Of a stretch of DNA of 64,000 bases, positions 7,722-62,307 are shown one piece after another. How positions within the stretch are numbered: position 1 is the first letter of the stretch; every line of letters starts with the position of its first letter. The position numbers were made by a program, and so were the translations under genes. This DNA is from Rhizophagus irregularis. Taxonomy: Eukaryota. The notes under the pieces were generated by a model, which was not told where the DNA came from, ran no database searches, and worked only from the letters and a program-made list of their open reading frames with translations. The stretch lies in contig NC_089432.1 in the NCBI RefSeq assembly GCF_026210795.1, positions 2,418,001 to 2,482,000 on the forward strand. Direction: 5' to 3'.

Positions 7722-9965
7722 TAACGATTCTACAGTTAAAGTGATAGTTCGTGAGGTAATTATAATATTAAACATTTTTTCATTAAAATTATTGTAAATA
7801 TGTAAAGATTGTTAATGTAATAATTTATTTATTAACTAGATTCAACTTCAACGTGAAGTTGATTTTCATGATAATATTATTCGTTTTTATGGTGTCACAA
7901 CTTCTATTAAGAATATGGTAAATTCTATTATTATTTATTTTATAAGATACAATAATTAATTGGTTAATAAAATTTTTCTTTTTTTTAGAAAATCAAAGAA
8001 AAGAATATTCATTGGTAATAGAATATGCTGAAAATGGTACCCTCCGAAAATATTTGAAAGAAAATTTTAAAAATCTCAGTTGTGACAATAAATTTGATCT
8101 TGCATTTCAATTGGTTATGCAGTATCATGTTTGCATGATGAAGGGATCATGCACCGTGATTTGGTAAATATTTTACAATTTATTATGTGCTCTATTTCAA
8201 TGATTCTCTTATTTTAACGTTAATTTAATATTAATAGCACTCTAATAACGTGTTAGTCCATCAGAAAACTATTAAGCTAGCAGATTTTGGTTTATCAAAA
8301 AGAATTGAGGAAATATCCAACTCCCAATCAAAAACATTTGGATTAATTCCTTATACTGATTTAAAAAGTTTTGACAGAAGTACAACAGAATTTTATTTAT
8401 TAAATAAAAAAAGCGATGTTTACAGCGTTGGTGTTTTATTATGGAAAATATCCAGTTGTAAGCCTCCTTTTCATGGTAAACCATATGATGTTGGTTTGGC
8501 TATAAGTATTTTACAAGGCCTTAGAGAGACACCTATTCATGATACTCTCGAAGAATATATAAAAATTTATATGGTAAATACAATTTAGACCATAACTACC
8601 ATAACTTATATATAATATTATTTTAATTAATTAAAGACGTTCTTTTTTTTGTAGATTGTTGGAATACTGAACCTGATAATCGTCCAACTATTAATCAAGT
8701 TGTTGATGAATTAAAAGTACTCATAACAAAAGTAAACATTATTATAAAAGATTTTCACTTACTATATAATGATACCAATAATGTCCAATCATTAAATAAC
8801 CATCAACTGCCTAATTTAAATATTTCTGAAAGTACTAATTCATCACATGGAGAATTATCTCAAGTTATTCAAAATTTTAATATGATGAATACAAAAGATA
8901 TTGAATCTTCAATATCATCAATTAACAAATTTGAGGATAATTTTAATATAATATTTAATAATATGTTCAATTTTTTTTATGATGATGATGAAGTAGCAAA
9001 GCAAAAGGTCTTAAGTTATCTTAATGAACAAAATATAACTTTGCAAAAGATTAATAATTTATTATTAAATAACCAAAATAACTCAAATACTATTTACTTA
9101 CTTGGAAAGTTTAATCATTTAGGAATTGGGATTAGTGTTGATGAGCAAAAAGCATTTGATTTATATCAAAAAGCAGCAAATTTAGGAAATTCATTAGGAA
9201 TAAATGATTTAGGGTGTTGTTATCATTGTGGAATTGGAACTGATATTGAAAAAAAAGGCATTTGAATTGTATCAAAAGGCAGCAGAATTAGGAAATTCAA
9301 TTGGAATATAAATTTAGGAGGTTGTTATGAAAAAGGAATTGGAACTGATATTGATTATCAAAAAGCATTTGAATTATATCAAAAAGCAGCAAATTTAGGA
9401 TATTCATCTGGAATAAATAATTTAGGACATTGCTATCAAAATGGAATTGGAACTGATATTGATAAGGAAAAAGCATTTAAATTATATCAAAATGCAGCTG
9501 AATTAGGAGATTCATCTGGAATAAATAATTTAGGATATTGTTATCAAATTGGAATTGGAACTGATATTGACAAGAAAAAAGCATTTGAATTATATCAAAG
9601 GGCTGCAGATTTAGGAAATTCATCAGGAATATATAATTTAGGACTTTGTTATAGAAATGGAATTGGAACTGATATTGATAAGAAAAAAGCATTTGAATTA
9701 CATCAAAAGGCTGCAGATTTAGGAGATTCATTTGGAGTAAATAGTTTAGGATATTGTTATCTAAATGGAATTGGAACTTATATTGATAAGGAAAAGGCAT
9801 TTAAATTATATCAAAAGGCAGCAGATTTAGGAAATTCATTTGGAATAAATAATTTAGGAAATTTGTATCAATATGGAATTGGAACTGATATTGATAAGAA
9901 AAAAGATTTGAATTATATCAAAAAGCTGCAGATTTAGGAAACAGTTTAGCTCAATATAACCTTGC

Positions 9966-16855: not shown

Positions 16856-16952
16856 CTCTATAAAAAATTTTATCACGTGTCTGAGTTTCTTCGAAATAAA
16901 AACTAGAAAAATGATCATTTATCGGAGTTTTTTCCAGAATTTTTTTATAGGG
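16856..16952. mobile_element. 97-bp CCCTA-family MITE
   Basis: ctctataaaaaa...ttttttataggg; 3-bp TSD tta; similar to 17365-17463. Confidence 0.8.
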
Positions 16953-21112: not shown

Positions 21113-24100
21113 ATGTCTAATAGCGCTGAACTTATTAGTAATTCAAATGATTAGAATGAATGGATTGAAGAAGCAATTTCTAAAAAACATATTAAATATT
21201 ATGAATATGAACAATTTTATAATATTCAGAAAATTGGTTCCGGTGGCTTTGGAAAGGTTTATCATGCGAATTGGAAGAATTCTCATAAGCGTTGTGCAAT
21301 AAAATCATTTTTTAATATCAATGATGCTACAATCAAAGCAATAGTTCGTGAGGTAATTATGATGTCAAACATTTTTTCGTTATTATTATAAATATTTAAG
21401 TTAATAATTTATTTATCACCTAGATTCAACTTCAACGCGAAGTTGATTTTCATGATAATGTTATTCGTTTTTATGGGGTTACAGCTTCTATTAAGGGTAT
21501 GATAAGTTCTAATATTTATAATATTATACAATAATTAATTAATTAATTTATAAAAATTTTTTTTTTAAGACAATCAAAAAAAAGAATATTCATTAGTGAT
21601 AGAATATGCATGCAGAAAATGGTACCCTCCGAAAATATTTAAAAGAAAATTTTGAAAATCTCACTTGGAACAATAAATTTAATCTTGCATCCCAACTGGC
21701 TTATGCAGTATCATGTTTACACGGTGAAGGGATCATGCACCGCGATTTAGTAAATATATTACAATTTAATTAGTTATTTTATTTTATTGATGTTTTGTCT
21801 TAATGCTGGTTCAATATTGATAGCACTCCAATAACGTGTTAGTCCATCAGAATATTATTAAGCTAGCAGATTTTGGTTTATTAAAAAGAATTGAGGAAAC
21901 ATCCAACTCTCAATCGAGAACATTTGGATTAATTCCTTATACTGATTCAAAAAGCTTTAATGGAAGTGCATATTTATTAAACAAAAAAAGTGATGTTTAC
22001 GGCGTAGGTGTATTACTATGGGAAATATCCAGTTGTCAGCCTCCTTTTCATGGTAAACGATGTGATGCTGGTTTAGCCTTGAATATTTTACAAGGCCTTA
22101 GAGAGACACCCATTCATAATACACCAGAAGAATATATAAGTATTTATACTGGTAAATACAATTTAAACTATCATAACTTATAAATAATGTCAGTTTTAAT
22201 TAATTAAAAGCATTCTTTTTTTGTAGCTTGTTGGAATGTTAAACCTGATAATCGTCCAACTATCGATCAAGTGGTTAATAAATTAGATAAATTAAAGGCA
22301 AAACAAAATATAATTATAAAAGATTTTCACTTATATAATAATGACAATGATATACAATCATCATATAACTACCAGTCTAATTCAGATGTAATTTCTGAAA
22401 ATATTGATTCATCACATGGAAATTTATCTCAAATTATTCAAAACTTCAATATAATGAATACAAAAGAAATAGAATCTTCAATGTCATCAGGTAACCTATT
22501 TGAGAATAGCTTTGATACTATAGTTAATGATATAATTAATTATCTTGTTGGTGATAGTATTGAAGTAGGAAAACAAAAAGTCCTAAATTATCTTAATAAC
22601 CATAATATAACTTTACAGGACTTTAATAATTTATTATTAAATAATCAAAATAACTCAAATTCTATTTACTTACTTGGAAAATTTAATGACTTAGGAATTG
22701 GAATCTGTGCTGATAGTCAAAAAGCATTTGAGTTTTATCAAAAAGCAACAGATTTAGGAAATGCATTTGGAATAAATGAGTTAGGATATTGTTATGAAAA
22801 AGGAATTGGAACTAATATTGATAAGAAAAAAGCATTTGAATTATATCAAAAAGCAGCAGATTTAGAAAATTCATTTGGTTTATATAATTTAGGAGTTTGT
22901 TATGAAAAAGGAATTGGAACTAATATTGATAAAAAAAAGCATTTGAATTATATCAAAAGGCTGCAAATTTGGGAAATTCATATGGAATAAATAGTTTAGG
23001 ACATTGTTATCAATATGGAATTGGAACTGATATTGATAAGAAAAAAGCATTTGAACTATATGAAAAGGCTGTAGTGGATTCAGAAAATTCATTTGGAATG
23101 ATTGATTTAGGTTATTGTTATGAAAATGGAATTGGAACTGATACCAATAATAAAAAGGCATTTGAATTATATCAAAAGGCAGTAGAATTAGGAGACACAT
23201 CCGTAATAACCAACTTAGGATATTGTTATGAAAAAGGAATTGGAACTGATATTGATAATAAAAAAGCATTTGAATTATATCAAAAAGCAGCAGATTTAGA
23301 AAATTCATCTGGGATGTATAATTTAGGAGATTGTTATGAAAAAGGAATTGGAACTGATATTGATAATAAAAAAGAATTTGAATTATATCAAAAAGCAGCA
23401 GATTTAGAAAATTCATCTGGGATGTATAATTTAGGAGATTGTTATGAAAAAGGAATTGGAACTGATATTGATAAGAAAAAAGCATTTGAATTATATCAAA
23501 ATGCTGCAGATTTAGGAAATTCATATGGAATAAATAGTCTAGGATTTTGTTATGAAAAAGGAATTGGAACTGATATTGATAATAAAAAAGCATTTGAATT
23601 GTATCAAAAGGCTGCAGATTTAGGAAATGCATCTGGAATGAATAATTTAGGAGGTTATTATGAAAATGGAATTGGAACTGATACTGACAAGAAAAAAGCA
23701 TTTGATTTATATCAAAAGGCAGCAGAATTAGGAAATTCATTTGGAATGCATAATTTAGGAGATTGTTATGAAAAAGGAATTGGAACTGATATTGATAAGA
23801 AAAAAGCATTTGAATTATATCAAAAGGCTGCAGATTTGGAAATTTATATGGAATAAATAATTTAGGAAATTGTTATCAATATGGAATTGGAACTGATATT
23901 AATGAGAAAAAAGCATTTGATTTATATCAAAATGCAGCAGATTTAGAAGATGCATTTGGAATGAATAATTTAGGATATTGTTATGAAAATGGGATTGGAA
24001 CTGATATTGATATGAAAAAAGCATTAGAATTATATCAGAAAGCGGCAGATTTAGAAAATTTATCTGGAATGTATAATTTAGAAGATAATTATGAAAAAGA

Positions 24101-24765
24101 AATTGGAACTAATATTGATAAGAAAATGCATTTGAATTATATGAAAATGTAGCTGCTGAATTAAGGAATTCATTTGGAAAAAATAATTTAGAAAATTGTC
24201 ATCAACATGGAATTGAAACTGATATTGATGATAAGAAAAAAGCATTTGAATTATATCAAAAGGCAGCAGAATTAGGAGATGCACTTGGAATAACCAACTT
24301 GGGATGTTGTTATGAAAATGGAACTGGTACTGATATTGATAAGAAAAAAGCATTTGAATTATATCAAAAGGCTGCAGATTTAGGAAATTCATTTGGAATA
24401 TATAATTTAGGAAATTGTTATCAACATGGAATTGGAACTGATATTGATAAGAAAAAAGCATTTGAATCATATCAAAAGGCTGCAGATTTAGGAAATTCAT
24501 TTGGAATATATAATTTAGGAAATTGTTATCAACATGGAATTGAAACTGATATTGATAAGAAAAAAGCATTTGAATTATATCAAAAGGCTGCAGATTTGGG
24601 AAACAGTTTAGCTCAATATTGTCTTGCTGTGATGTATGAGAATGGGGAAGGAACTGCTAAAAATATAGCTAAAGCAATTTATTGGTACAAAAAACAGAAT
24701 ACTTGAGATAATTTAGAGAAATCTAAAATTAGAAAATAAGGAACAATTTATGTAAAGTAAATTAA
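21113..24765 (+). pseudogene. Gene B: TKL kinase + ~19 SEL1 repeats, disrupted
   Basis: Same exon layout as A. TAG at codon 14, 4-bp duplication at ~21606, frameshifts in the repeat array; vestigial ...NNLCKVN* end. Confidence 0.9.
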
Positions 24766-29941: not shown

Positions 29942-32900
29942 ATGTCAACGAATAGTAAAGAACAAACTAACAATTCCGATTATATTGATTGGATAGAAAA
30001 AGCAATTGAAGATAATTATATTACATATTTTGATTATGATGAATTTACAAATAAACAAGAATTCGAAAATAGTGATACTAGTTCGGTTGGAAAAATATTT
30101 AAAGCAAATTATAAAAACAATGATACTCCTTTGATCGTAAAAACATCTAGATTAGATATTAAAAAATTTATAAATGAGGTATTTTAAAATTTTAACATAT
30201 TTTATATATATTAATAATTTTCACAAAAATCCTATTAATCAAAATCTATAACAGCTTAAAATCCGGAAGGAAGTTGATTTTCATACAAATATTTTACAAA
30301 TTCATGGGATTTCAAAATTTGACAATCAGTATTCATTAGTTTTGGAGTACGCTGATGGTGGAACATTGTATTCGTACTTAAAAGAGAATTTCACTAAGCT
30401 TGAATGGAATGATAAATATCGTTTAGCGTTACAACTTGCAAGCGCTATAGAATGTATTCATAATAAAGGAATAATCCATTGTGATCTGGTACGTACAATA
30501 TATTATTTAATATTTTTTTATTTATCTAATACATCTCACTAATACGAAAATTAATGATGATAATAATTAACCTTTAGCATGCACACAACGTGCTAATACA
30601 TAAAAACGATATTAAAGTAGCAAACTTTGGCTTAGCTAAGAAAGCATCTGAAGCATCAAATTATTCTATTGAAGTATATGATTTACTTCCTTATATAGAT
30701 CCAAGAAACTTGAGTAATATCAAACATAGAGATCAACCCTGTATAATGGATTTCAAATCAGATATTTATAGTATAGGAGTTCTTCTCTGGTTACTATCAA
30801 GTGGTCGAAAGCCTTTTTGTGATGAAGGTATACAATACGATGCTCGTTTAGCCATGGATATAGTAGGTGGAAAAAGAGAGGAGATTATCAAGGGTACGCC
30901 TATTAAATATAGTAATATCTATAAAGGTAAAATATTATTAATTTTTATAACACGATTGGATGGTTTATGTAACGTATTAATGATGTATAATTCTAATTTA
31001 ATTTTTTTTTTAGCGTGTTGGGAAAATGATCCTGATGAAAGGCCATCCATTCAAAAAGTCGTTTCATACCTTACATCATATCAAGATATTAATGAAGAAA
31101 CAAATTCTATCAAATTTGAAAAAAAAAATGAAATTAAGAAAGGAGCATCAAATAAGGATTTTGATTACATCATGATAGATGATGATTTAATTATAGATGA
31201 AGACATTTTAAATTCTATTATACAAAATGATTTACAAAATGATTTATTAATTAATATAACAGATTCTGATGACATTGAAAAAATTATTAATAAGTTGATA
31301 GACCATTTAATCAAAATGCATGATGAATTTGGTTATGGTTTTGCAGAAGTAAAACAAATTATTGAACAAAATATTAAAAATATTAATCAAACCTTACTAA
31401 ATAATATTCCTAATTGGCTTAAAAATCAAACATCATCACCTAAATATAATTTCTTTCATGGTTTTCTTTATTTTAATGGAATTATTGTAAAGAATAATGG
31501 AGATAGAGCATTTGGATTATTTTCTAAATCATCAAAAGAAAATTATCCTATGGCTCAAGTTTATTTAGGTAAACTGTGTACAGTTCCTAAAATTCAAATT
31601 GATTGGTATCAAAAATCGGCAAAAAATGGAAATAAACTTGCAGAATTTTATTTAGGTAACTGGTATGAAAATGTTAAAAAAGATGATTTTAAAGCATTTG
31701 AATGTTATGAAAAAGCAGCAAATGTTGGAAATAAAATTGCACAATTAAATTTAGGTTATTTTTATGATAATGGTAGAGGAACGGAAAAAAATAAGGAAAA
31801 AGCGATTGAATGGTATGAAAAATCTGCAAATCAAAAATGTAGTAACGCACAACTTTTTCTTGGAATATTATATAAAGGAACTAAAAAAGATTCTAAAAAT
31901 TCATTTGAATTGGTTGAAAAAACAGCAAAAAGTGGAAATAAAATTTCACAATTTTATTTAGGTAAATATTATTATCATGGTACAGGAGTTAAAAAAGATT
32001 ATGGAAAATCATTTGAATGGTATGAAAAATCAGCTAAACAAGGATATAATGATGCATTATGTGCTTTAGGATATTTATATTTAAAAGGTAAAGGTACTGA
32101 AAAAAATTTAGGAAAAGCATTTAATTTGATTGAAGAGGCGGCAGAAAAAGGAAGTAAATATGCACAACATTATTTAGGTACAATTTATCGACATGATAAA
32201 GGTGATATAGTAAAAGCAATTGAATGGTATAAAAAATCTGCTGAACAAGAATATAATGAGGCACAAAATAGTTTGGGATGTTTATATGAAGAAATTTATC
32301 AAGATTTAGATGAATCATTATATTGGTATGAAAAAGCAGCAAAGAATGGAAATAAATTCGCACAATATAAATTAGGATGTTTTTATGAAAATGGTAAAGG
32401 AAAACAAAAAGATGTAAAAAAAGCAATTGAATGGTATGAAAAATCAGCTAAACAAGGGTGTAGTTTTGCACAATATTGTTTAGGATATTCATTTGAAAAT
32501 GGAGAAGGAATTGATCAAGATTTAGGTAAAGCAATTTATTGGTACAAAAAAGCTGCTGAAGATGGAAATAAAACTGCACAATATAGAATAGGATATCTTT
32601 ATGAAAATGGTAGAGGAATGCGAAAAGATATAAAAAAAGCAATTGAATGGTATGAAAAATCGGCTATACAAGAGTATAATAATGCACAATGTAGTCTAGG
32701 ATATTTATACGAAAAAGGCAAAGGAATCGATCAAGATTTAAGTAAAGCAGTTTATTGGTACAAAAAAGCAGCAGATAATGGATATGAAGCTGCGTATTAT
32801 TGTTTGGGTAAATGTCATCAAGATGGAATTGGTATCGAAAAAGATGAAGTTAAAGCATTTGAATATTATAAAAAATCAGCTGAAAAAGGATATTTAAATG

Positions 32901-33040
32901 GAATATATATACTTGGATACTGTTATGAGAATGGGATTGGAACCGAAATTGATAAAGAAAAGGCAGTTGAATTGTATAAAGATGCTGCTAACAGAGGAAA
33001 TAAAGATGCACCAATAAGACTAGAAATGATGAGTTCATAA
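29942..33040 (+). CDS. Gene C: intact TKL-like pseudokinase + ~14 divergent SEL1 repeats
   Basis: Exons 29942-30178, 30255-30488, 30578-30926, 31014-33040 join in frame. HCDLHAHN, ANFG in place of DFG, degenerate Gly loop; repeats of the type AQYxLGxxYENGxG..D.xKAxxWYxKSA. Confidence 0.9.
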
Positions 33041-33987: not shown

Positions 33988-35170
33988 AATATTTAATAAT
34001 ACTTTACATGTTAATTATGGGATTAGAGATTAGATACTGTAATATCGTTGACTTTATATGAGTAATAATGCAAACTAACATATTTTATCGATACGCAGTA
34101 TATTATAATCAGTACATAAACTTGTTATACTTACATCTGTAAATTTTCCATATAATTTAGATAGACTTTTAGTATACTTTTTTTATAGTCCGAAACATAA
34201 GCATAGTACACACTTCAACTCTTAATTAGGGAATATTAAATTCTAGGATCTTGAGTAACTATCGAAATCTCATTTTGCTATCATGTATATCACGCGTGAT
34301 TAGATAAAATATTTAATAATACTTTACATGTTAATTATGGGATTAGAGATTAGTTACTGTAATATCGTTGATTTTATATGAGTAATAATGCAAACTAAAT
34401 ACGCAGTATATTATAATCAGTATATAAATTTGTTATACTTACACCTGCAAAATTTTCCATATAACTTAGATAGACTTTCAGTATACTTTTTTTATTGTCC
34501 GAAACATAAGTATAGCACACAATCAACTCCAAATTAGGGAATATTAAATTCTAGGATCTTGTGTAACTATCGAAATTTCATTTTTTGTTGTATATCACGC
34601 GTGATTAGATAAAATATTGATAATACTATTGTGAGATTAGAGATTAGATACTGTAATATCGTTGACTTTATATGAGTAATAATGCAAACTAACATATTTT
34701 ATCGATACGCAGTATATTATAATCAGTTTATAAATTTGTTATACTTACTTCTGTAAATTTTCCATATAATTTAGATAGACTTTTAGTATACTTTTTTTAT
34801 AGTCCGAAACATAAGCATAGTACACACTTCAACTCTTAATTAGGGAATATTAAATTCTAGGATCTTGTGTAACTATTGAAATCTCATTTTGCTATCATGT
34901 ATATCACGCGTGATTAGATAAAATATATTGATAATACTTTACATGTTAATTATGAGATTAGAGATTAGAGATTAGATACTGTGATATCATTGATTTTATA
35001 TGAGTAATAACATATTTTATCGATATGCAGTATATTATAATCAGTACATAAATTTGTTATACTTACATCTGTAAATTTTCCATATAATTTAGATAGACTT
35101 TCAGTATACTTTTTTCATAGTCCGCATAGTACACACTTTAACTCTTAATTATGGAATATTAAATTACGCG
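33988..35170. repeat. Tandem repeat of ~305-320-bp units, ~3.8 copies
   Basis: gattagagattag(a/t)tactgt...aaattctaggatcttg...tatcacgcgtgattagataaaat recurs at ~33988, 34308, 34613, 34921. Confidence 0.9.
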
Positions 35171-38075: not shown

Positions 38076-41000
38076 AAGCTCATCTGTCTAGTGACATGAT
38101 GATAAGACTAGGGACTGAACAGATATGTTATAGCTCGTTGATGTGTAATTTTATTATTGCATGGGAGAAAGATGCCAGAGTAAAATCTGTATCTTTAGTA
38201 CGAAAAATTAAAGAAAGTTCTTGTTGTATGATTCCGATATGAAATTATTTGTCCACGTGGTGTCGGGAAATTGATAGATAATCTCAAAAAAGAAACTTTT
38301 AAAATCGTAGATCGTTTTAAAACCTGATTCTTTTACTTTGGTCACGTGGAATTTTTCAAAAGAGACGAGGAAAAAATTATCTACTATACTAGAGGTAGAA
38401 ATTAAAGGAAAGGAAGTGTTTGAAGAAACATTATCTTCGATTAAAGTGTCATTATAGGAGATGTAGACTCGAAAGGTTCACTATTGAAGACATAGTCGTC
38501 TGGTGAGAAAGAACTAAAGCCGTACGGAGGAATATAATTTCCGTCTGCCCGAGGAAAAGAACACATAACCCAAAGTTGCGGGTATAAAAAACTCTGTTTT
38601 TCTGAAAAAACTGTAGCGTATATTACGCTATTAGCAAGCAACGGGGCCACCGTGTGGTCCTTCCACCACGAAATAAAAACTAATTAACGGAACGGTAAAA
38701 CTAGTGTTTACTGCGGAAAATTAACAAAAATAAAAAAGGGGGAAGAGTTTTTTTTTTTTATGAAAATGATCTAGGTGAAGTTGAAAAAAGTTCTCGTTAT
38801 TGTATTTCTTATGGCTTATTAGAAGCACGTGATTTTATAAGGTGTAAACGATCCAAAAAAAGAGGATAGTGGAAGTATTAAAGATAGGGTGTATAAAGAC
38901 TTTGATAAGTGACTGTATAGTCGAAACTTTTACCATATGTATATATATTCGCAAATTGGTTTTGTTTGTTAATAAGCAATGTACAAAAAAAATAATAAAA
39001 AGTCTATTTTTTCCCTCAAGTACCTGAAAGATAACCCAAAGATTAACTGAAAAATGTTTTACCAGTTGTTGATGGTAAGAATATTATAAACTATCTAATT
39101 AAGGAATTCACTGTATATTTCAAAATTTATTTAATCAACCCCTTGGGACTTGGGTAACTTTTGGTTAATTGTCCTGAAAACTTGATTGTTTCACTGCAGT
39201 AAACTTTAAACTAAATTCGTCTAAAAATTCATCTACAAGATTTGAATTCATTTCAAAAGCAAATTTATTGTTTTTCAATAAAATATAATTTTAGAATATA
39301 TAATTTATTTTTCCATTTATATTAAAAACTTGAAATATGTCGAAGAAAAATAATGTCTAAAAAGTCAACTAACGATTAAAATTTAGAGTTAGATATAACT
39401 TGAAATTATATATAAAATTAAAAGAATTTTAAAAAGAATTAATAAATAGAAAAAATCATACAAAAAAAGTCGACGCACAAGGATTTTTTAATAAATTTTC
39501 CAAAAATTATTTCATGAAACATTGACCGCATAATCAAATAAACTCAATTTTGATAATTTTGATATTCTTCTAAAATAAGTACTACGTAGTTTTTAATGTT
39601 ATGAATTTTCCTTCCCAGGAAATAAATGAGTAGTCCCCTGGAGCATGTCACTCATTTAATATTAACTATTTTAACTATTTTAAACTAAAATTAGTAATTT
39701 CCCGGCTATCTATATGAGACCGGGAAATAACTAAACGAAGATTCCCGGTCATTTATAAACTCAGCTAATCACTCGTAATTTTTATAATTTTTAAAAATTA
39801 GTATGAAGGTGATCATAAGTGACACTTAGTGCGACAGGGGATTAATTTACTTATACATATAGTTTCGTAATACGATTTTAATGCCTGATACACCTGATAC
39901 ACAATTTATTATAACCATTTTTATTATAAATCACATTACACCGGATAAAATGATGATATCTGTACGACATATTAATCAGATTTAATAATAATTTCATAAC
40001 AACATTTCTTTATATATTTTAATACTATTATCATTAATATTATTTGTATAAATATATTATATTCAATAATATAAAAAAAAAAATTCAAATTCAGTGATTC
40101 TTGAAAACTCTGCGTATAAAACGAAAAAAAAGTTGCTTAGCGCTAATCTTCAAAATTTATTCTAACATTAAAAAGAACTTATATTATTCTTATTATTCTA
40201 ATGATACATTAAAAATTCGTTATTTAAGAATTTTAATTTGTATATTCAATAAGCAAAATTATATATTTCCAAATAGTAATATTTAATATTACCGTATATT
40301 TCTTTTTAAGAGTTAAGTTTGTTAAGGAAATTGTTGGTAAAAAACTTTTTTCTTGATAAATATAAAGTGAACTGATACTATGCTATCCTTATATAGTAAA
40401 TAATAAAAAGATTCTTATATAGAAAATTTTCTAATAGAAAAGTAAATGATGCGAAACAAAAGAATTAATAAAAGAAAATTTTTAAATACCTATGGGAACT
40501 GAAAAGATTTATAAGGATTGAGATTCGTAAAACCAAAAAAAAATCGTAAATCCTTTAATTTATTCAGAGCTTGAAAATACGCTGTTCTTTTTCAGCTTGC
40601 ATGAACTTCCCCAGAAAAATGTCAATAAAATTTGTTTATAAAAATAAATTTTCTTGTACTAAATAATTGTTAACGTTACCATGAATCCATAATACGTTTA
40701 AATAATTCTTATATTTTATTGAGAATAAATAATAATAATAGTAGTAAGAAATATTACCTCCTGCTTCTCTTATTTAGATGACATCACTTTCATATATATA
40801 TTAAATAGAACATTATTATTATTTTATTTATTTTAAAAATAATACCCATAAAAATATAACTGATAATTATAAATTAATAATAAACGATATGGCGAACAAT
40901 AAAAAAAGATAAAATAGATAGAGTAGTTAGTTGCAATAAACTATAAAAGTGATTCGTTCAAAAAATTATTTTATGTATCGATGAGCACAGTATACACTTT

Positions 41001-43269
41001 TAGAAATGATCAGCACAAATCACGTGAACGTTACATTTTTCTGCGGGCAACTGGGAAGTTTGCTGCATGCTGAAGATCAGTAAAATTTCGACATAGAAAT
41101 GTCTGGTGTCACTATTTTTATTATAAATAGTTTTACAAAAAAAAAAATATTTTTTTTTTCAATTTAAAAACGTAAAATTAAATTCTGCCACAAAATTTTA
41201 AAATTTTTGTATATCCAACAATGTCTAATAACGCTGAACTTACTAAAAATTCAAATGAGTATAATTGGATTGAAGATGCAATTTCTAAAAAACTTATTAA
41301 ATATTATGAATTTGAACAATTCTGCGATCTGCAAGAAATTGGTTTCGGAGGTTTTGGAAAAGTTTATCGTGCAAGTTGGAAGAATTATTACAAACAATGT
41401 GCACTAAAATCCTTTTTTGATTTCAACGACTCTACAGTTAAAGGAATTGTCCGTGAGGTAATTTTAATATCGAACATATTTCAATTTATATATGTACATT
41501 TCTATTATTAACAAACTTCTATTTATTGCTTAGATTCAACTTCAGCGCGAAGTTGATTTTCATAATAACATTATCCGTTTTTATGGTGTCACAGCTTCCA
41601 GTAAAGGTATCAAAAGTTCTAGTAATATTATTTTTTTTTTATATTAAACTGTAATTAATTATCTAATTTGTAAATTTTTTTTTTTTTAAAAGAAAACCAA
41701 AGAAAAAAGTATATGTTAGTAATGGAATATGCCGACAGTGGTACTCTCCGAAAATATTTGAATGAAAATCTGTCTTGGAATGACAAATATAATCTTGCAT
41801 TCCAACTTGTTTGTGCAGTATCATGTTTACATGGCGAAGGGATCGTGCATCGTGATTTGGTAATTAATTTATAACTTATTATGATTGCGTAGTGTATTTA
41901 GTTTATCTTAATTTAATTATTTTAATTTAATGTAATTGAATAGCACTCCAATAATATATTAGTTCATCAGAATACTGTCAAGCTAGCAGATTTTGGCTTA
42001 TCAAAAAGAATTGAAGAAACATCCAACTCTCAATCAAAAACATTTGGATTAATTCCATATGTTGATCCAAAAAGTTTCAATAGAAGTAAAGAATTATATG
42101 TATTAAGTAAAAAAAGTGATGTTTATAGCATTGGCGTATTGTTATGGGAAATATCCAGTTGCCAGCCTCCTTTTCATGGTAAACAATATGATGTTGGTTT
42201 AGCTTTAGATATATTACAAGGCCTTAGAGAAACACCCACTCATGATACACATGAAGAATATATAAAAATTTATGTTGGTATGTATAAAATTACATTTGTA
42301 TGATTTATAACCATATAATTTTAATTAATTGAGGATAATTTTCTGTAGATTGTTGGAATATTGAACCTGATAATCGTCCAACTATTGATCAAGTAGTTGA
42401 AGAACTAAAAGTACTCATAATGAAAGAAAACATAATTATAAAAGATTTTCACTTATATAATAATACCAATAATTCTCTGTCATCAAATAACCATCAACTG
42501 TCTAATTCAACTGTTAAAATTTCTGAAAGTACTAGTTCAATACATGGAGATTTATCTCAAGTTATTCAAAATTTTGATATGATTGATATGATAAATACAG
42601 AAGAACTAGAACCAACATTATCATCAATTAACCAATTTAAGGATAACTTTAATATAGAAGTTAATATTATGTTCAATCTTTTTAATGATAGTGATGAAAT
42701 AGGGAAGCAAAAGATCTTAAGTTATCTTAATGAACAAAATATAACTTTGCAAGAGATTAATAATTTATTATTAAATGATCAAAATAACTCGCATTCTATT
42801 TACTTACTTGGAAAATTTAATCATTTAGGAATTGGAATCAGCGTTGATAATCAAAAAGCATTCGAGTTATATCAAAAAGCAGCAGATTTAGGAAATTCAT
42901 CTGGAATAAATGATTTAGGATATTGTTATTTAAATGGAATTGGAACTGGTATTGATAAGAAAAAAGCATTTGAATTATATCAAAAGGCAGCAGAATTAGG
43001 TAATTCATCTGGAATAAATAATTTGGGAGATTGTTATCAATACGGAATTGGAACTGATATTAATAATAAAAAAGCATTTGAATTATATCAAAACCCTATA
43101 AAAAATTTTGATCCGTTTTTTTATTCCGTTTTTATTCCGTTTTTATTATTAAATAGACAATTCCGTGTTTATTCAGTAAAGGTCTCATATTCGCGGAATT
43201 TATACGGAAATTTTACTGAAATTATCTATAAAAAAACTGAAATTTTATTGAATAGATTTAATTAATAAC

Positions 43270-43695
43270 ACTGATAATAAACTAATAAAAAACTGATAAA
43301 TTCATAGAATAATTTATTACGTAAAACTGATAAAAAACTAATAAAAAACTGATAAATTCAAAGAGAATTTATTGATATAAAATGGATAATAAACTAATAA
43401 AAAACTGATAAATTCATAGAATAATTTATTGTATAAAACTGATGAAAAACTAATAAAAAACTGATAAATTCATATAATAATTTATTGTATAAAACTGATA
43501 AAAAACTAATAAAAAACTGATAAATTCATAGAATAATTTATTGTATAAAACTGATAAAAAACTAATAAAAAACTGATAAATTCATAGAATAATTTATTGC
43601 GTAAAACTGATAATAAACTAATAAAAAACTGATAAATTCAAAGAGAATTTATTGATATAAAATGGATAAATTTCGGATAAAAAACTGATAAATTT
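43270..43695. repeat. Subterminal tandem array (~58-bp unit) of the CACTA element
   Basis: aaactaataaaaaactgataaattcatagaataatttattgtataaaactgat repeated about 7 times. Confidence 0.85.
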
Positions 43696-43729
43696 CCAAG
43701 ATACAATTTCAGGATTTCTCCCTACTTTA

Positions 43730-45086
43730 CTAATCAGTTTTCTTGCTAGAAGATCTTGTTATTCGTGAAGTTTTTGGAGTTTTTACTGGGGTTTGTGAAG
43801 ATTTCCTTTTTCTTTTTTTATCTATAAAATTGGAAAACATAATAAATATAATTATATTTATTTGAAAAAAAACAAAATTTCTGCCTTACTAGAAGTTTCT
43901 GCAATTTTATCCATAACAGGCGTAATATGGAGAGCATTGTCCTCAGTTTCAGAAGTATTAACTTCACCTGGAGTGGGAGATGGTGGATCCTCAGTACCTG
44001 GCGTATTAGCTTTGGAGATGGGAGTTGGTAAAATAATTGCTTTTGAACAGTAAAAATAATAGTGTTTATATTATTTAATATATTAAATATTAATATAAAT
44101 TACTATGGAATAATTATAAAAATAATACTTGAAGTACTTCCAGAAGCTTGCAAGCTACCAGTAATAGAATCACTCATGTTACGCTTCTTATTATTAGGTG
44201 GTTTGATATTTTTCTTTTTTGGCTGCGGTAGTGGAAGACCATGTTCTTTTGCATCAGCAATTTTCTTTTTTTTGGCTTGGTCAACTATAATAAAATTAAG
44301 TAAAAATTATTTAAAAAAAATACAAAAATTTTTGTAATAAAGCACATACCAGTACTATTACAGTACAAAGCAAGCCATTCACGAAATATAAAGTTAGCTT
44401 CGGAAACTGGAAATGTTGGGTTTGCTTCTTTGAACTGTAATAAAATAATAAATATTATTTATTTTTATATTTATTTTTATATCTTCACTAAAAATATGAA
44501 TTTATATACTTACATCTTTAATAATCTCTTCAACTATCCCCTTTTGCTGATGGGACATTGGTTCACCACGAGTAAGTCTAGAGGCTGCACGATTTCGAAG
44601 ATCATTCTGTAATAGTAATTATATAAAATTAATAATTGTTAGGCAAACACTTAAACTGAGTATATTTACCCTAAAGTTTAAGTATTGCTGCTTATCAAGT
44701 TTCAAGAATTCATGCCATTGGAACTCTTTTTTATTTTGCTTTTGAATTTGCTTATATTCTCTATATTCCTGAATTTTGATTGGATTCATCACAGTTCCTT
44801 TCGGAAACTGTATATAATTGTTATTACTAATTAGTAATTCAAGAAATTATTTGTAAACAAAGTATACCTGTTCATTAGTAGTGCCATTCACAGCACTACG
44901 TGCATCTAGAGATGATCCTGCAAGTGAAGGCTCAATGGTTATTAGCTCTGTATATAATTTATGACGCTTTTCAGAACTTAAAACATTAATAAGAGATATA
45001 TCTTCCAATAATACAAGAAATAGTTGTTTGCGTTCTTCATAACTAAGTTCACTAATATCAATAGCATGATTAGTACTTTGTGACAT
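43730..45086 (-). CDS. Multi-exon accessory gene of the CACTA element (one apparent frameshift near 44735)
   Basis: MSQSTNHAID...; exon pieces FQWHEFLKLDKQQYLNFR and FKEANPTFPVSEANFIFREWL; basic S/P/T-rich tail ending SSKKTD*. Confidence 0.6.
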
Positions 45087-45519
45087 CTTTTAAAAGAAAT
45101 TTTAAAATATTTATTATTAAAGAAAAGAAGAGTTGAATGTTTAATTAAATAAAAGTTTGAGTTGTATTTATAATGAAAAGTATATGATAATTGATATGCG
45201 TTTTACAAATTTGAAAGTATAAATAGTTTAATATTTATAATACAAAAGTATATAATAGTTTAATAATTATACGCGTCTTACAAATTTGAAAGTATAAATA
45301 GTTTAATATTTATAATATAAAACTATATGAAAGTTTAATAATTGATACGCGAAATTATAATAAAGTCAATATTTAATACTACTATTATATTGTATAAGCA
45401 TTAATTATTTTGATAATATTTTTTTTTAAATATATGGAATTTATCAGTTATATGAAAATTAATAATTATATAAAAATTCAAAACTCTGATTATTTTTAAT
45501 ATTTTTAATAATTTTTAAT

Positions 45520-48500
45520 ATGGTTAAACAAGTTCTATGCACCTGTATTTGGTGTCTTCAAGAGTCAAATGGCCAAGGAAAATCAGTAAGCAAGGCAACT
45601 CGTGCAAGGCATATAATAAAACAAAAAAAAACTTGGGCCAACCCAGCAGGCATGCCTACATTACAGCGTCATATAACTACTCCCATTTCTCAGACTACTT
45701 CAGCAGTATCACCATCTACAGTAATGCTATTGCCTACTAATACTACAGAAGAAATTTCAAATTATAATCATGGTGAAGATATTAATATAGATTTTTTTGA
45801 AAATATGATGAGTGATAGAAATGAAGAAATCATATCTGAACGATCTTCTAGTGATGAAGAAGATCAAATTGAAGTATTAGAATATGAAGAAAATGAAAAG
45901 GATAATGATGATGAATATGATGGGGATGATGATAATGATGATGATAATGATGAAGGTGATCATAATAATAATAATAATGAAGGAGATGATAAAGGGAATA
46001 ATGAAGAAGAAGAAAATAATAAGGAATATAATGGAGAAATTTCAGAAGATTTAATTAAAGGTTTACGGCTTCTTAAAATTAAAGACAAATATAATATCCC
46101 AGAAGCTGCATTTAATGAAATTCTTAAAGTTTTTGAAATTTCTAAAGTATCTCTTTTTAAACTTCGAAAACTTCTTGGAAATATTGTTCCATTAGAACCA
46201 ACTCTTGTAAATTGTTGCATCAACTCATGTGTAGCATTTACAGGCGAATTTATTAATGAAGATCATTGCCCATATTGTGGGGAATTTCGTTATAAATCTA
46301 GCCAAGTTGCTCGAAAAAATGCTTCTTATTGGTCACTTATTAATACACTTAGAGCACAATATAAGGACAAAGCTCGTTCTGAGACTCTTCGCTATCGACA
46401 TACTTACACCTCAACAAATGAGTATACAATTGGTAATCAAATAAGTGATGTATTTGATGGTTTTCGTTATAAAACTCTAGTTTCTTCTGGATTTTTCTCA
46501 GACAGTCGGGATATTGCCCTAATAGCATCTACTGATGGATACCAGATTTTCTGTCAAAAAAGAAATGACTGCTGGGTTATTCTTTTGATAAATGCAAATC
46601 TACCACCTGATGTGCGTGTCAAACGTGAAAATTTGATGATTTCTGCACTTATTCCAGGACCAAAAGAACCAAAAAATTTTAATTCTTTTTTACAACCACT
46701 AGTTGATGAATTAAAACAATTACAAGGTATTTAATTTATATTTATTAGCATATGTCAGATATGTTTAGATTATAAATAAACTTATAATATATAATACTTA
46801 TAATTCAATTATTATAATAATGAGTATAGAAGGTGTTCAATGTTTTGATGGTTTAACAGAAAGTACATTTACCCTTCATGCACATATTATGAGTTTGTCT
46901 GGTGACATTCCAGCACTTGCTAAAGTTATGTGTACAACAGGACATAACTCATATAAGGCTTGTCGATTTTGCACTATTAATGGAGTGTATTGTCAAGAAA
47001 ATCGACATGTATATTTTCCACACAAATCTGCTAATAGGAGGTATGATCCTGAAAATCTTCCATTACGAACACATGAAGGTTATATTCAAGATGTTATGGC
47101 CATAGAACATGTAAATGGAACTTTATATAGACAAGAAGTGCAAAAGAGAGGTGAGATATAAATTGTTTATAAATTGAATAAAATTTTTATTCATTTATTT
47201 GTTGTTTTTGTAGGTGTAAAAGGTCGAAGCATTCTTTTGGAACTTAAGTCAATTGAGTTCCCAGCTTCATTTCCCATCGATATTATGCATGGATTATTTG
47301 AAAATATTGCACCAGCAATGCTTCGCCATTGGTTTGGTACTTTTTTTAAAAAAGATTTTGCCTCTGAATGTGTACTTTCTAAAAGTATTTGGAATGAAAT
47401 TGGAACTATAATGGAAAAAAATCAAAAGAACATGCCTCTTGATTTTGGCCGTCCACCTATTGACATTCAAAAACATTTTGCAGGATTCAAAGCAGAGGAT
47501 TGGACAAATTGGGTGATACTGTATTCACTTCCACTCTTACAGAATTATCTTCCTGAAAGGTAAATTTGCTTGCAACATATATATATAATGTTACCAAGTA
47601 ATATTTACTATTAATTTAAATTTTAATATTTTTAGGTATTTAAATGGATGGGCAAAATTCGTACATGCTGTAAAGCTTTGTCTTAAAAAAAATATTAGTA
47701 TATCAGAATTGACAGAAATAGATAGATTATTTCGTGAATTTGTTACACATTATGAAAGGTATATTTTCATAAATAGTTATTGCAATCAATTCTTTATTTA
47801 ACTTATTAAATATAATTTAATTTTATTAGAGAGTATATTCAGGATGATTCCAGACGATTTTCGGCAGCACTAATTTCTTATCATTATTTACTGCATATTT
47901 CTACCTCCATTCGTAATACTGGGCCTGCATGGGCAACTTGGCAGTACCCCATGGAGAGATTATGTGGGATGCTAGTGCCATTAGTGCATTCCAAGCAACA
48001 TCCCTATACAAACCTTCGAAACCAAATTACTATATGGACTCAATTCTCACATCTTCAGTACAAAGCTGAAGTGAACCAGAAAGTTTTTGGAAACAAGTTG
48101 AGAGAACTTAGTACAATTGAAGAAGAGTTGTACTCACTATCACGCAAGTATTGTATGAATAGAACTGAGTTACAACGCCTTAGAGCTTATTATGTAACAG
48201 TATTGAATAAGCCTGCAGACCAACTTATGGTGAGCTATGATGTTCCAATTTTAATCTTTAAAAACTTTAGTTCTCTAACATTTGCTTAGCCAATTACAGA
48301 TTCCATACAGAAGTATGGGAAGTTTCGAACAAAGTATGGACTGATTATTAATTCAAAACTATCAAATCGCAAGGGTGATGTTGCTCGTAAAAATTTCTGT
48401 ATTGCTGTATGTATATCATTAGTACTAATGATTTTTCCAAGAATTATCATTTTAATATTAGCCACTTTTAGGTAAAGCTTTTGGTTGATAAAAATGCTCA

Positions 48501-48777
48501 TCGCCCAAATGCACCAATCATTCTGGAAGAAAGGGAGTTTTTTGGAGAGGTACAATATTTCTTTTCACATCAATATAATGGTTGCTGGTCCATGTTAGCA
48601 TATGTGCAATGGGTGCGAAATCCTCGGCCTTCTGGACATGGTCCATTAAAGTTCCGGGATCTTGGTGCATTTGAAGTAATTAATATTAGTGCAATTGATA
48701 GAAATGTTGGATTTCTCAAGATGCCAAACAATGAATTGTATATTATCGATCGAGAAAATAGAGTTAAATTCAGATAA
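45520..48777 (+). CDS. CACTA/EnSpm TnpD-like (Tnp2/Transposase_21 family) transposase, ~7 exons
   Basis: CINSC...CPYC, STDGYQIF, NANLPPDVR, IPGPKEPKNFNSFLQPLVDEL, GDIPA...GHNSYKACRFC, DIMH, WQYPMERLCG. Confidence 0.88.
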
Positions 48778-51354
48778 TTATTTGTTGTTATTTGGATAGT
48801 ATAATCAATTAAATTTATTAATTTGCGAAAGTCAAAAAACTTTATTTATAAATTATAGTTCATTTCGTTACGGTGTTGTATTACATAAAAAAAAAAAACT
48901 GGGATCCCAGACCCCAGGCGTTACTGACTAGTGAATTTTTATTTGCTTTTTTATTTTATTATATTTCTGATTTATTCATATTTTTTCCATTATTATTCCG
49001 TTTTTTATCATGGTTAATTATCAGCAAATTATCAGTTAATTTTAGAAATTTGATAGTCCATTTTAATTCCGTATTTATATTGCTGAAATTACTGAAAGAA
49101 TCCGGATTGTTACTCAACCGGTTACTATTCCGAAAAAATTCACTGAATATTTACGGAATCCAAACAAAATCATGGAGTTATAACGGAAATATTCTGGAGT
49201 GTCATTTTTTATAGGGAAAGGCAGCAGAATTAGGAAATTCATCTGGAATAAATAGTTTAGGATATTGTTATCGAAATGGAATTGGAACTGATATTGATAA
49301 TAAAAAAGCAATTGAATTATATCAAAAGGCTGCAGATTTAGGAAATGCATCTGGAATTAATAATTTAGGACAATGTTATGAAAATGGAATTGAAATTGAT
49401 ATTGATTATCAAAAAGCATTTAAATTATATCAAAAGGCAGCAGATTTAGGAAATGCGTTTGGAATAAATAATTTAGGATTTTGCTATCAAAATGGATTTG
49501 GTACTATTGTTGATAAGAAAAAAGCATTTGAATTATATCAAAAGGCAACAGATTTAGGAAATGCATTTGGAATAAGTAATTTAGGGCAATGCTATGAAAA
49601 TGGATTTGGTACTGATATTGATAAGAAAAAAGCATTTGAATTATATCAAAAAGCAGCAGGTTTAGGAAATGCATTTGGAATAAATAATTTAGGATATTGT
49701 TATGAAAATGGATTTGGTACTGATATTGATAAGAAAAAAGCATTTGAATTATATCAAAAAGCAGCAGATTTAGGAAATGCATTTGGAATAAATAATTTAG
49801 GACAAAGTTATCAAAATGGAAATGGAATTGATATTGATTATCAAAAGGCATTTAAATTATATCAAAAAGCAGCAGATTTAGGAAATGCATTTGGAATAAA
49901 TAATTTAGGATATTGTTATAAAAATGGATTTGGTACTAATATTGATAATAAAAAAGCATTTGAATTATATCAAAAAGCAGCAGAATTAGGAAATTCAACT
50001 GGAATAAATAATTTAGGAGATTGCTATCAATATGGAATTGGAACTGATATTGATAAGAAAAAAGCATTTGAATTATATCAAAAAGCAGCAGATTTAGGAA
50101 ATGCATTTGGAATAAATAATTTAGGATATTGTTATGAAAATGGAATTGGTACTGATATTGATTATCAAAAAGCATTTGAATTATATCAAAGGGCAGCAGA
50201 TTTAGGAAATGCATTTGGAATAAATAATTTAGGACAATGTTATCAAAATGGAAATGGAATTGATATTGATTATCAAAAAGCATTTAAATTATATCAAAAA
50301 GCAGCAGATTTAGGAAATGCATTTGGAATAAATAATCTAGGATATTGTTATAAAAATGGATTTGGTACTAATATTGATAATAAAAAAGCATTTGAATTAT
50401 ATCAAAAAGCAGCAGAATTAGGAAATTCAACTGGAATAAATAATTTAGGAGATTGCTATCAATATGGAATTGAAACTGATATTGATAGGAAAAGAGCATT
50501 TGAATTATATCAAAAAGCAGCAGATTTAGGAAATGCATTTGGAATAAATAATTTAGGATTTTGTTATGAAAATGGAATTGGAATTGATATTGATAAGAAA
50601 AAAGCATTTAAATTATATCAAAAGGCAACAGATTTAGGAATTGCAATTGGAATAAATAATTTGGGATATTGTTATGAAAATGGATTTGGTACTGATATTG
50701 ATAAGAACAAAGCATTTGAATCATATCAAAAGGCAGCAGATTTAGGAAATGTATTTGGAATAAATAATTTAGGATGCTGTTATGAAAATGGATTTGGTAC
50801 TAATATTGATAAGAAAAAAGCATTTGAATCATATCAAAAAGCAGCAGATTTAGAAAATACATTTGGAATAACCAATTTAGGAAATTGTTATCTTAATGGA
50901 ATTGGGACTGGTATTGATTATCAAAAGGCATTTGAATTATATGAAAAGGCGTCAAATTTAGGGATTAGTGTAGCTCAATATAATCTTGCTATGATGTATG
51001 AGAATGGAAAAGGAACTGTGAAAAATATAAATGAAGCAATTTATTGGTACAAAAAATCTGCTGAACAAGGAAATCAAGGTGCTCAAAATAAATTAGAGGA
51101 GCTTAAATAGAAAAATAAAGAATAATTCATGTAAAAGTAAATTAAGAATATTTGATTAAACATTTAAATAAAATAACACATAACAATCATTATTTTTTAA
51201 ATATTATTAAATTGTCATTTATATTTTTAACTAAAATTTATTTTTAGTATATTTAATAAGAAATTTTTCATTACAATTGATAATTGCTTGTAACTATAAA
51301 CAATTTATGTACTGATATCTAGTACCTATTTATTAACAATAATTTAATCTATTA

Positions 51355-59643: not shown

Positions 59644-62307
59644 ATGTCTAATAACGCTGAACTTACCAAAAATTCAAATGAGTATAATTGGATTGAAGAT
59701 GCAATTTCTAAAAAACTTATTAAATATTATGAATTTGAACAATTTTGCGATCTGCAAGAAATTGGTTTCGGAGGTTTTGGAAAAGTTTATCGTGCAAGTT
59801 GGAAGAATTATTACAAACAATGTGCACTAAAATCCTTTTTTAATTTCAATGACTCTACAGTTAAAGGAATTGCCCGTGAGGTAATTTTAATATCGAACAT
59901 ATTTCAATTTATATATGTACATTTCTATTATTAACAAACTTCTATTTATTGCTTAGATTCAACTTCAGCGCGAAGTTGATTTTCATAATAACATAATCCG
60001 TTTTTATGGTGTCACAACTTCTAGTAAAGGTATCAAAAATTTTAGTAATAATATTTTTTTTTTATATTAAATAAACTAACTTGTAAATTTTTCTTTTTTA
60101 AAAGAAAATCAAAGAAAAAAGTATATGTTAGTAATGGAATATGCCGACAATGGTACCCTCCGAAAATATTTGAAAGAAAATTTGGAAAAACTCACTTGGA
60201 ATGATAAATTCAATCTTGCATTCCAACTGGTTTGCGCAGTATCATGCTTACATAACGAAGGGATCATGCACCGCGATTTGGTAATTAATTTACATCTTAT
60301 TATGATTTACGTAGTGTATTTTAGCAATTAGCTCATCTTAATTTAATTATTTTAATTTAATGTAATTGAATAGCACTCCAATAATATATTAGTTCATCAG
60401 AATACTGTCAAGCTAGCAGATTTTGGCTTATCAAAAAGAATTGAAGAAATACCCAACTCTCAATCAAAAACATTTGGATTAATTCCATATGTTGATCCAA
60501 AAAGTTTTAATAGTAGTACAACAGAATTATATGTATTAAATAAAAAAAGTGATGTTTATAGCATTGGCGTATTGTTATGGGAAATATCCAGTTGCCAGCC
60601 TTCTTTTCACGGTAAACCATATGATGTTGGTTTAGCTTTAAGTATTTTACAAGGCCTTAGAGAAACACCCACTCATGATACACCTAAAGAATATATTAAA
60701 ATTTATATTGGTATGTATAAAATTACATTTATATGATCTAAATCATATAATTCTAATTAATTGAAGATAATTTTCTGTAGATTGTTGGAATTTTGAACCT
60801 GATAATCGTCCAACTATTGATCAGGTAGTTGAAGAATTAAAAGTACTCATAACGAAAGAAAACGTAATTATAAAAGATTTTCACTTATATAATAATACCA
60901 ATAATACTCTGTCATCAAATAACCATCAACTTTCTAATTCAACTGTTAAAATTTCTGAAAGTACTAATTCATTAAACGGAGAATTACAATTTATTCCGAA
61001 TACAAAAGATATAGAATCTTTAATGTCATCAAGTAACCAGTTTGAGAATAACTTTGATACAATAGTTATTAATACTATGTTCAATCTTTTTAATGATAGT
61101 GATGAAATAGGGAAGAAAAAGGTCTTAAGTTATCTCAATGAACAAAGTATAACTTTGCAATAGATCAATAATTTATTATTAAATAATCAAAATAACTCGC
61201 ATTCTATTTACTTGGAAAATTTAACAATTTAGGAATTGGAATCAGTGTTGATAATAAAAAAGCATTCAAGTTATATCAAAAAGCAGCAGATTTAGGAAAT
61301 TCACATGGAACAAATAATTTAGGGAATTGTTATCAATATGGAATTGGAACTGATATTGATAATAAAAAGCATTTGAATTGTATCAAAAGGTTGCAGATTT
61401 AGGAAATTCTTATGGAATAAATAGTTTAGGAGATTGTTATCAAAATGGAATTGGTACTGATATTGATTATCAAAAAGCATTTAAATTATATCAAAAGGCA
61501 GCAGATTTAGGAAATGAATTTGGGATAAATAGTATAGGATATTGTTATCAAAATGGATTTGGTACTGATATTGATAATAAAAAAGCATTTGAATTATATC
61601 AAAAGGCATCGGATTTAGGAAATTCATATGGAATAAATAATTTAGGACAAAGTTATCAAAATGGAATTGGAATTGATATTGATAATAAAAAAGCATTTAA
61701 ATTATATCAAAAGGCAACAGATTTAGGAAATTCATATGGAATAAATAATTTAGGAAATTGTTATCAAAATGGAATTGGAATTGATATTGATAATAAAAAA
61801 GCATTTAAATTATATCAAAAGGCAGCAGATTTAGGAAATTCATATGGAATAAATAATTTAGGAAATTGTTATCAATATGGAATTGAAATTAATATTGATA
61901 ATAAAAAAGCATTTGAATTATATCAAAAGGCATCAGATTTAGGAAATTCTTATGGAATAAATAGTTTAGGAGATTGTTATGAAAATGGAATTGGAACTGA
62001 TATTGATAAGAAAAAAGCATTTGAATTATATCAAAAGGCAGCAGATTTAGAAAATACATTTGGAATAACCAACCTAGGAAATTGTTATCTTAATGGAATT
62101 GGGACTGGTATTGATTATCAAAAGGCATTTGAATTATATGAAAAGGTATCAAATTTAGGGATGAGTGTAGCTCAATATAATCTTGCTATGATGTATGAGA
62201 ATGGAAAAGGAACTGTGAAAAATATAAATAAAGCAATTTATTGGTACAAAAAATCTGCTGAACAAGGAAATCAAGTTGCTCTAAATAAATTAGAGGAGCT
62301 TAAATAG
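59644..62307 (+). pseudogene. Gene E: TKL kinase + ~10 SEL1 repeats, recent paralog of D
   Basis: Exon 1 differs from D by 2 aa. TAG at 61161 (GAG in D), 4-bp deletion near 61210, A-run frameshift near 61365. Confidence 0.9.

Follow-up and report, generated by a model that had tools for sequence, protein, structure and literature searches.

The SEL1-like repeats of gene C of Rhizophagus irregularis join a nearly fixed scaffold to change at a small number of positions. We lean, by a modest degree, towards reading the array as the ligand sensor in what is predicted to be an intracellular kinase-SEL1 receptor, in which the repeats are homogenised and selection changes the predicted groove sites 8, 11, 15, 18 and 19 of the repeat unit. 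Diversifying selection at these groove sites, taken by itself, is fairly probable and has moderate statistical support.

Genes of the window and the interrupted array

The window, meaning the whole stretch of DNA analysed (64,000 nucleotides; contig NC_089432.1, positions 2,418,001 to 2,482,000), is AT-rich eukaryotic DNA with spliced genes. Five kinase-SEL1 genes, A, B, C, D and K, lie on its plus strand (Table 1). Near-identical 108-nt repeats are common to genes A, B, C and D, and the repeats of gene K are divergent, with 70–78% DNA identity to the unit consensus. The G+C content at third positions of the repeats is very low (6%). Along the 5' region gene D is 82–99% identical to gene C. 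The protein at 49215-51107 has Pfam Sel1 matches in 17 stretches (E 1.8e-172), identifying it as a SEL1-like repeat protein, and finds its best homologues among the kinase-SEL1 proteins of Rhizophagus. The PF07714 match at 41944-42300 gives gene C the N-terminal tyrosine-kinase-like domain and SEL1 repeats that define the Glomeromycotina kinase-SEL1 family. The first-pass annotation of 49221..51000 had described a SEL1 array with a scaffold close to invariant. The array is real, consisting of 16 near-identical units and a divergent terminal unit, and the 16 units agree at 11 of the 36 positions, but a transposon that parts the array from its kinase had been overlooked.

Table 1. Kinase-SEL1 genes, repeat arrays and the gene C transposon in the window
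Feature	Position	Strand	Basis or detail
Array A: 7 highly similar repeats, broken paralogue	9173..9924	+	stop 5745-5747, insertion 5797-7721, frameshifts
Array B: 17 highly similar repeats, broken paralogue	22745..24585	+	stop near 21152, frameshifts
Gene K: kinase-SEL1 paralogue, divergent repeats, no homogenisation (internal contrast)	30578..33040	+	
5' part of gene C: spliced tyrosine-kinase-like kinase, linker, cap repeat, two highly similar repeats	41221..43093	+	
Presumed CACTA/EnSpm-like DNA transposon, 6.1 kb, between repeats of gene C	43094..49216		Transposase_21, DUF4218
Array C, 3' part of gene C: 16 highly similar 36-aa SEL1-like repeats (SLR)	49221..50948	+	Pfam, unit alignment, AlphaFold, SLR fold matches
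Three-unit block duplication within array C, recent	49761..50516	+	49761-50084 vs 50193-50516; 2, 1, 3 nt differences
Divergent terminal SEL1 repeat, then capping helix and stop codon	50949..51110	+	
Array D: 8 highly similar repeats and terminal repeat	61283..62307	+	frameshift at array start

The element that splits gene C, whose class we take from its Pfam domain and from general features of such elements, has 12-bp terminal inverted repeats and a 3-bp target duplication (AAA). Contigs from runs X1 and X13 span its left junction and show 0 differences; run X17 covers the transposon at a low level and is uninformative. In protein P0057 the kinase and the SEL1 repeats are joined with no interruption at the transposon site. 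It is 91–94% identical to gene C over the kinase and linker, and its units are collinear with those of gene C, with 0–2 residue differences each. It appears from this identity that an uninterrupted allele of gene C exists elsewhere. The core of array C is nearly without amino-acid change (piN/piS 0.03–0.04), which fits a recent insertion. Gene C is probably an inactive copy in this genome, and the selection signal within it therefore records the recent past. A 1.9-kb element at 5797-7721, interrupting exon 1 of gene A, carries the same terminal motif as the gene C transposon, and its target duplication is not clean; two further right-end motifs occur at 16941 and 17452 (six motif matches in all, against 0.11 expected).

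None of the four high-identity genes (A to D) is intact in the assembly, with stops, frameshifts and the transposon among the lesions; the in-frame stops in exon 1 of genes A and B fall at Trp codons. Reads were compared with the window over positions 41000-44000. At 41460-41735 a contig of run X1 matches the window with 0 substitutions and five gaps, which suggests homopolymer-length errors in the window, and the A-run frameshifts in arrays A, B and D may be partly artefacts. Contigs of run X17, which is RNA by guess only, match gene C exons at 41271-41455 and 42027-42276 with 0–1 differences and leave the alignment near the exon borders, a weak hint of spliced transcripts. Non-coding tandem arrays lie at 43231-43694 (56 bp period, within the end of the gene C transposon), 10096-10463 (52 bp) and 33988-35165 (309 bp), and transposase remnants stand between the kinase genes at 2368-2844 (DDE_3) and 13292-14195 (Tc5 HTH and DDE_1).

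Exchange among the repeats is visible at several levels. Units differ by 14.3 nt within genes and by 15.4 nt between genes, a DNA identity of about 87% and 86%, respectively, so that the high internal identity of HIC-type arrays is found here. Four-gamete conflicts, which recurrent mutation also produces, climb with distance from 34% to 55–66%, and linkage decays (rho -0.10, p=0.026). Protein P0001 corresponds to gene D unit for unit and has two more units; judged from their identity, the two are probably allelic copies with a difference in unit number. The block duplication, the four-gamete conflicts and the unit gain of P0001 together amount to the repeat exchange and number polymorphism known from HIC NLRs.

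Variable sites and tests of selection

Unit positions are numbered from the first A of the AADLG motif. The pooled set comprises 50 full units (7 from A, 17 from B, 2+16 from C and 8 from D); four partial cap units and five gene-K hits were excluded from the 59 BLAST rows, and the divergent terminal units were also left out. Variation in the pool ranks positions in the order 15, 8, 18, 27, 19, 7, 11. The per-position entropy check proposed by the first-pass annotation peaks at these same sites, with 2.84 bits at position 15 (10 residues), 2.10 at 8, 1.83 at 18, 1.81 at 19, 1.79 at 27, 1.64 at 7 and 1.39 at 11. Among the 16 units of array C the values are 2.28 bits at 15, 1.92 at 18, 1.75 at 27, 1.42 at 21, 1.37 at 8, 1.32 at both 7 and 24, 1.20 at 28, 0.67 at 11 and 0.54 at 19. 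The five groove sites hold 33% of the amino-acid heterozygosity in the 50 units, against 14% if it were spread evenly (p=0.0004 against random non-core sets), for a set that was defined from structure but after the earlier annotation had indicated most of its sites. For array C alone the corresponding test of the TPR-register set gives p=0.07, and the one-face pattern is thus a property of the pooled arrays that is borderline in array C.

The earlier statement that variation is concentrated on one helix face accordingly stands for the pooled units; within array C, positions 7 and 8 are matched in variability by 27, 21, 24 and 28. The residue lists given for array C are right at 15 (Y/Q/F/D/C/N) and at 18-19 (RN/EN/QN/KN/QY/LN), and the list for the pair 7-8 (SS/AS/AF/ST/VF/TF) is correct apart from the missing AI. 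Of the extra residues claimed at 15 in arrays A and B, H and G occur and T does not, the actual set being H/G/V/L. In the proposed spacing i, i+3/4, i+7, i+10/11, the i+3/4 site is position 11, since position 12 is mostly Asn (39 of 50 units). At positions 27-28, where helix B begins, arrays A, C and D carry a linked Tyr-Gln pair in alternation with Lys-Lys or Asn-Lys; the two positions are as elevated as the groove sites here and quiet in Diversispora arrays.

The best AlphaFold model of the array has a mean pLDDT of 85.9 (34–58 in the other four) and puts unit positions 7-19 in helix A and 27-3 in helix B; its top Foldseek matches are solved SLR structures. The five variable sites belong to helix A and occupy the binding register of TPRs, and position 27, the first residue of helix B, is off the groove face. 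SLR and TPR presumably share a register, which we assume from the TPR consensus together with a statement in PMC3851747. The SLR number, in which residues 7, 8 and 11 are conserved (PMC3851747), equals the unit position minus 6, and the TPR specificity positions 2, 5, 9, 12 and 13 (PMC1261162) therefore become unit positions 8, 11, 15, 18 and 19. In the solved SLR structure c5321, groove residues D304, T306, A309, N310, A313, R317, Y272, K280, A341 and N345 touch a peptide in the crystal packing (PMC3851747). Aligned to the array unit these contacts fall at positions 6, 8, 11, 12, 15 and 19, coinciding with four of the five groove sites, and the backbone-binding Asn of c5321 aligns with the prevalent Asn of position 12. 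Mapping by homology thus supports the concave-groove location that had been proposed for the variable sites.

Selection was tested on the 50 units of the window, and homologues were compared as proteins. Tree-free piN/piS was estimated under three mutation models with bootstrap limits, only 36 codons calibrating the synonymous rate. It is 2.17–2.74 at the groove sites (lower limits 1.44–1.84), 0.75–0.97 at six exposed helix-B sites, 0.60–0.83 in the loop and 0.11–0.18 in the core. The comparison of synonymous with non-synonymous diversity that the first-pass annotation had suggested therefore gives a groove excess of 2.2–2.7 times, not equality. The groove value is stable when array B (2.1–2.8) or the gapped units (2.0–2.5) are removed; array by array it is 1.5–3.6, the lower limits of C and D coming close to 1 (0.89–1.18 for array C alone). 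Position 27 is also raised (2.3–3.2 pooled, 3.7–4.9 in array C), and the codon models pick it up too. At codon 15 all four bases occur in the first position, with a heterozygosity of 0.73, compared with at most 0.44 at nine four-fold third positions.

Neutral simulations, in which 20 sites were neutral and synonymous diversity was matched to that observed, covered 12 scenarios that combined different settings of genealogy, recombination, rate variation and base bias. The pooled groove value was matched in nine of 3863 accepted runs (7/363 in the worst scenario) and the value of the c5321-contact set in 52 of 3863 (worst 15/363). Single sites are more easily matched by chance: the top single-site piN was reached in 26/164, 82/217, 41/525, 0/323 and 113/485 runs, or 0–38% by scenario, and the top entropy in 0/164, 6/217, 0/525, 0/323 and 127/485 runs, the last being a star tree with strong rate variation.

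The codon-model check gave omega above 1 under MG-type models (LRT 9.6–32; omega 2.4–3.5 at 8, 15 and usually 27; 3.4 at 8, 15 and 27 in the best-fitting model) and under GY-F1x4 (LRT 13.9), but no such class under GY-F3x4 or F61 (LRT 0.02 and 0.0). When codon rates were allowed to vary, the LRT fell from 32 to 7–9. Of 20 neutral runs with recombination, 10 gave an LRT above 6 and one exceeded the observed 36, compared with 0/10 without recombination. Tree-based site models were dropped as sole evidence after the recombination control, and the tree-free result is given more weight, since the tree tests are both model-dependent and inflated by recombination. The diversifying selection inferred in the first-pass annotation is thus favoured by the tree-free tests on the pooled units and by the recurrence in other lineages described below; the mixed tree-based results and the equal elevation of off-face position 27 count against it.

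Recurrence in other arrays and alternative explanations

Among 104 homologues with at least eight units, 28 have an internal identity of 70% or more, and of these 23 carry a kinase and one a TIR domain. Eight Diversispora arrays, whose consensus is different, have 18, 15, 11, 8 and 19 as their five leading sites, and their heterozygosity is 0.70 in the groove versus 0.19 in helix B, with site 27 quiet (0.08); the eight proteins are paralogues and not independent cases. The groove also exceeds helix B in all of eight further arrays with other consensus sequences (0.59 versus 0.18; one near-duplicate excluded). In low-identity SLR arrays the groove is still the least conserved face, by a small gap (0.83 versus 0.64), and as they show the same rank, which positions vary is what the fold leads one to expect. 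What is new is that this variation exceeds synonymous change, together with the contrast within homogenised arrays. A mutation hotspot set by DNA context was rejected, given that arrays with other consensus sequences vary at these sites too. The related-locus scans took in 24 metagenome loci and one viral locus; of the 24 examined, all but L025, none carried five units or more that exceeded 68% DNA identity, so that the codon tests stay confined to the units of the window. In proteins P0071 (internal identity 71%), P0083 and P0007 of other organisms, SEL1 arrays are fused to TIR or caspase-like domains, an arrangement suggesting that such arrays may serve as sensors for several effector domains.

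The groove might simply hold the least constrained sites of the SLR fold, with gene conversion and restricted synonymous change in an AT-rich, multi-copy, decaying family mimicking selection. The concave face is generally less conserved in SLR proteins (PMC3851747), as in the low-identity arrays above, and the dependence of the codon tests on the model, the false positives produced by recombination, off-face site 27, the G+C-poor third positions and the broken genes all point the same way. We nevertheless hold relaxed constraint alone to be rather unlikely: exposed helix-B and loop sites lie at or just below 1, so that the synonymous yardstick is not obviously deflated, the pooled groove value is seldom reached in neutral runs, and first-base diversity at codon 15 exceeds that at four-fold third positions.

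Even where selection is real, its object could be ordinary signalling, in which paralogues bind different endogenous partners or kinase substrates with no non-self role. SLR domains are known adaptors (PMC3851747), the family has been interpreted as a signalling expansion (PMC6123716), and these proteins are without a NOD or cell-death domain; yet the variation separates units of a single gene as well as close copies, and comes with gains of units, shuffling and frequent losses of genes, a pattern tied in Podospora to allorecognition and immune genes (PMC4986451, PMC13449251), and this explanation seems improbable to us. A true modular code of the TALE or PPR kind, each repeat reading one polymer unit through a fixed residue combination, is very improbable. 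The near-identical arrays are long, up to about 20 units, and there is co-variation among residues 15, 18 and 19 (p<=0.005), but off-face 27-28 co-vary as strongly, as expected from shared descent. The 50 units hold 40 different five-residue combinations, none of them present more than three times, instead of a small recurring set with one unit per target letter, and pockets in known SLR and TPR structures span about three repeats (PMC3851747). The comparison with a repeat code made in the first-pass annotation is accordingly not supported.

Proposed mechanism and comparison with known systems

In gene C the glycine loop, Lys, alphaC Glu, HRD and DFG motifs of the kinase are present. Among the aligned sequences Lys, Glu, HRD-N and DFG are conserved, and 28 of the 33 have Lys in place of the APE Glu. 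P0001 showed no hydrophobic segment, the Pfam matches included no NACHT or NB-ARC domain, and one chance Walker-A-like match turned up in 45 proteins. The linker is disordered and then helical, and a search with it returned only Mucoromycota SEL1 clusters (best score 0.85). The intact product is likely a soluble kinase followed by a disordered linker, a helical cap and an SLR superhelix.

In the diversifying-sensor reading that we prefer, duplication and exchange would keep the repeats near-identical and selection would drive change at the five helix-A sites. By homology to c5321, an extended peptide would lie in the groove over about three repeats, its backbone held by the Asn at 12 and its identity read by the flanking variable side chains, so that a unit swap or a mutation could alter specificity. 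By parallel with the Podospora NLRs, ligand binding may switch the kinase on, and the ligands may be non-self or fast-evolving proteins, with other fungal genotypes at hyphal fusion, endobacteria, viruses and plant proteins as candidate sources. The groove sites likely vary most because new binding specificities are favoured, as in fungal immune receptors. More tentatively, arbuscular mycorrhizal fungi may possess a large family of NOD-free intracellular receptors for immunity or allorecognition, of the kinase-SEL1 type, in which unit shuffling together with diversifying selection reprograms the groove, and which recurs with separate consensus sequences in Diversispora, a chytrid and others, once with TIR in place of the kinase.

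The architecture is that of the Glomeromycotina kinase-SEL1 (HCP-like) family, the top homologues being kinase-SEL1 proteins of Rhizophagus, Diversispora and Geosiphon, up to 81% identical. This family is reported as high-copy, methylated and transposon-associated (PMC8647823, PMC6123716, PMC8778642), and its function is given as unclear in the text drawn upon (PMC8778642); near-identical repeats, unit shuffling and site-specific selection are not described in those portions of this literature. A full-text literature search, with most subscription journals and supplements outside its reach, yielded no account of SEL1 arrays in these fungi that are both homogenised and variable in the groove. 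Family expansion, and selection in bacterial slr genes, are already known. The bacterial SLR proteins (HcpC, c5321/4BWR, Helicobacter slr) share the fold and the groove with its Asn anchor, and positive selection between strains has been reported for Helicobacter slr genes (PMC1941758). Unlike the present proteins, they are secreted and have divergent repeats, and selection on them acts between orthologues, mostly in loops and on the general surface, and not among homogenised units.

The kinase and SEL1 expansions of arbuscular mycorrhizal fungi are well documented and unexplained. Should the evolution of their arrays resemble that of the sensor repeats in fungal NLRs, the arrays would be candidates for self/non-self discrimination or microbe detection in symbionts, and five defined residues per repeat offer a direct handle for population-genetic and binding tests. 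TALE and PPR proteins likewise have near-identical helical repeats with few variable residues, but the kinase-SEL1 arrays are without their small recurring vocabulary and without evidence of nucleic-acid binding.

A close parallel is with the fungal HIC NLRs, whose repeats have high internal conservation. The WD40, TPR and ANK NLRs of Podospora, such as het-e and het-d, carry repeats that are near-identical, that are exchanged both inside one gene and from gene to gene, and that are polymorphic in number; a few positions of the concave or binding face are under positive selection, and there is an association with transposons (PMC4986451, PMC13449251); a 2026 survey of such NLRs took in only repeats of the ANK, TPR, WD40 and LRR types (PMC13449251). 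The kinase-SEL1 arrays share near-identity, exchange, number polymorphism, groove-face variation and transposon association, and for binding-face selection the tree-free tests are positive, the tree-based ones mixed and site 27 raised as well. They differ in the 36-aa SEL1 repeat, the N-terminal kinase, the lack of NACHT or NB-ARC and the Glomeromycotina host. If the parallel holds, the shuffled-repeat receptor strategy reaches a new repeat type and NOD-free proteins. The arrays of the window are best read as shuffled, diversifying sensor repeats like those of the fungal NLRs, of SEL1 type, fused to a kinase and without a NOD, for which an immune role is a candidate.
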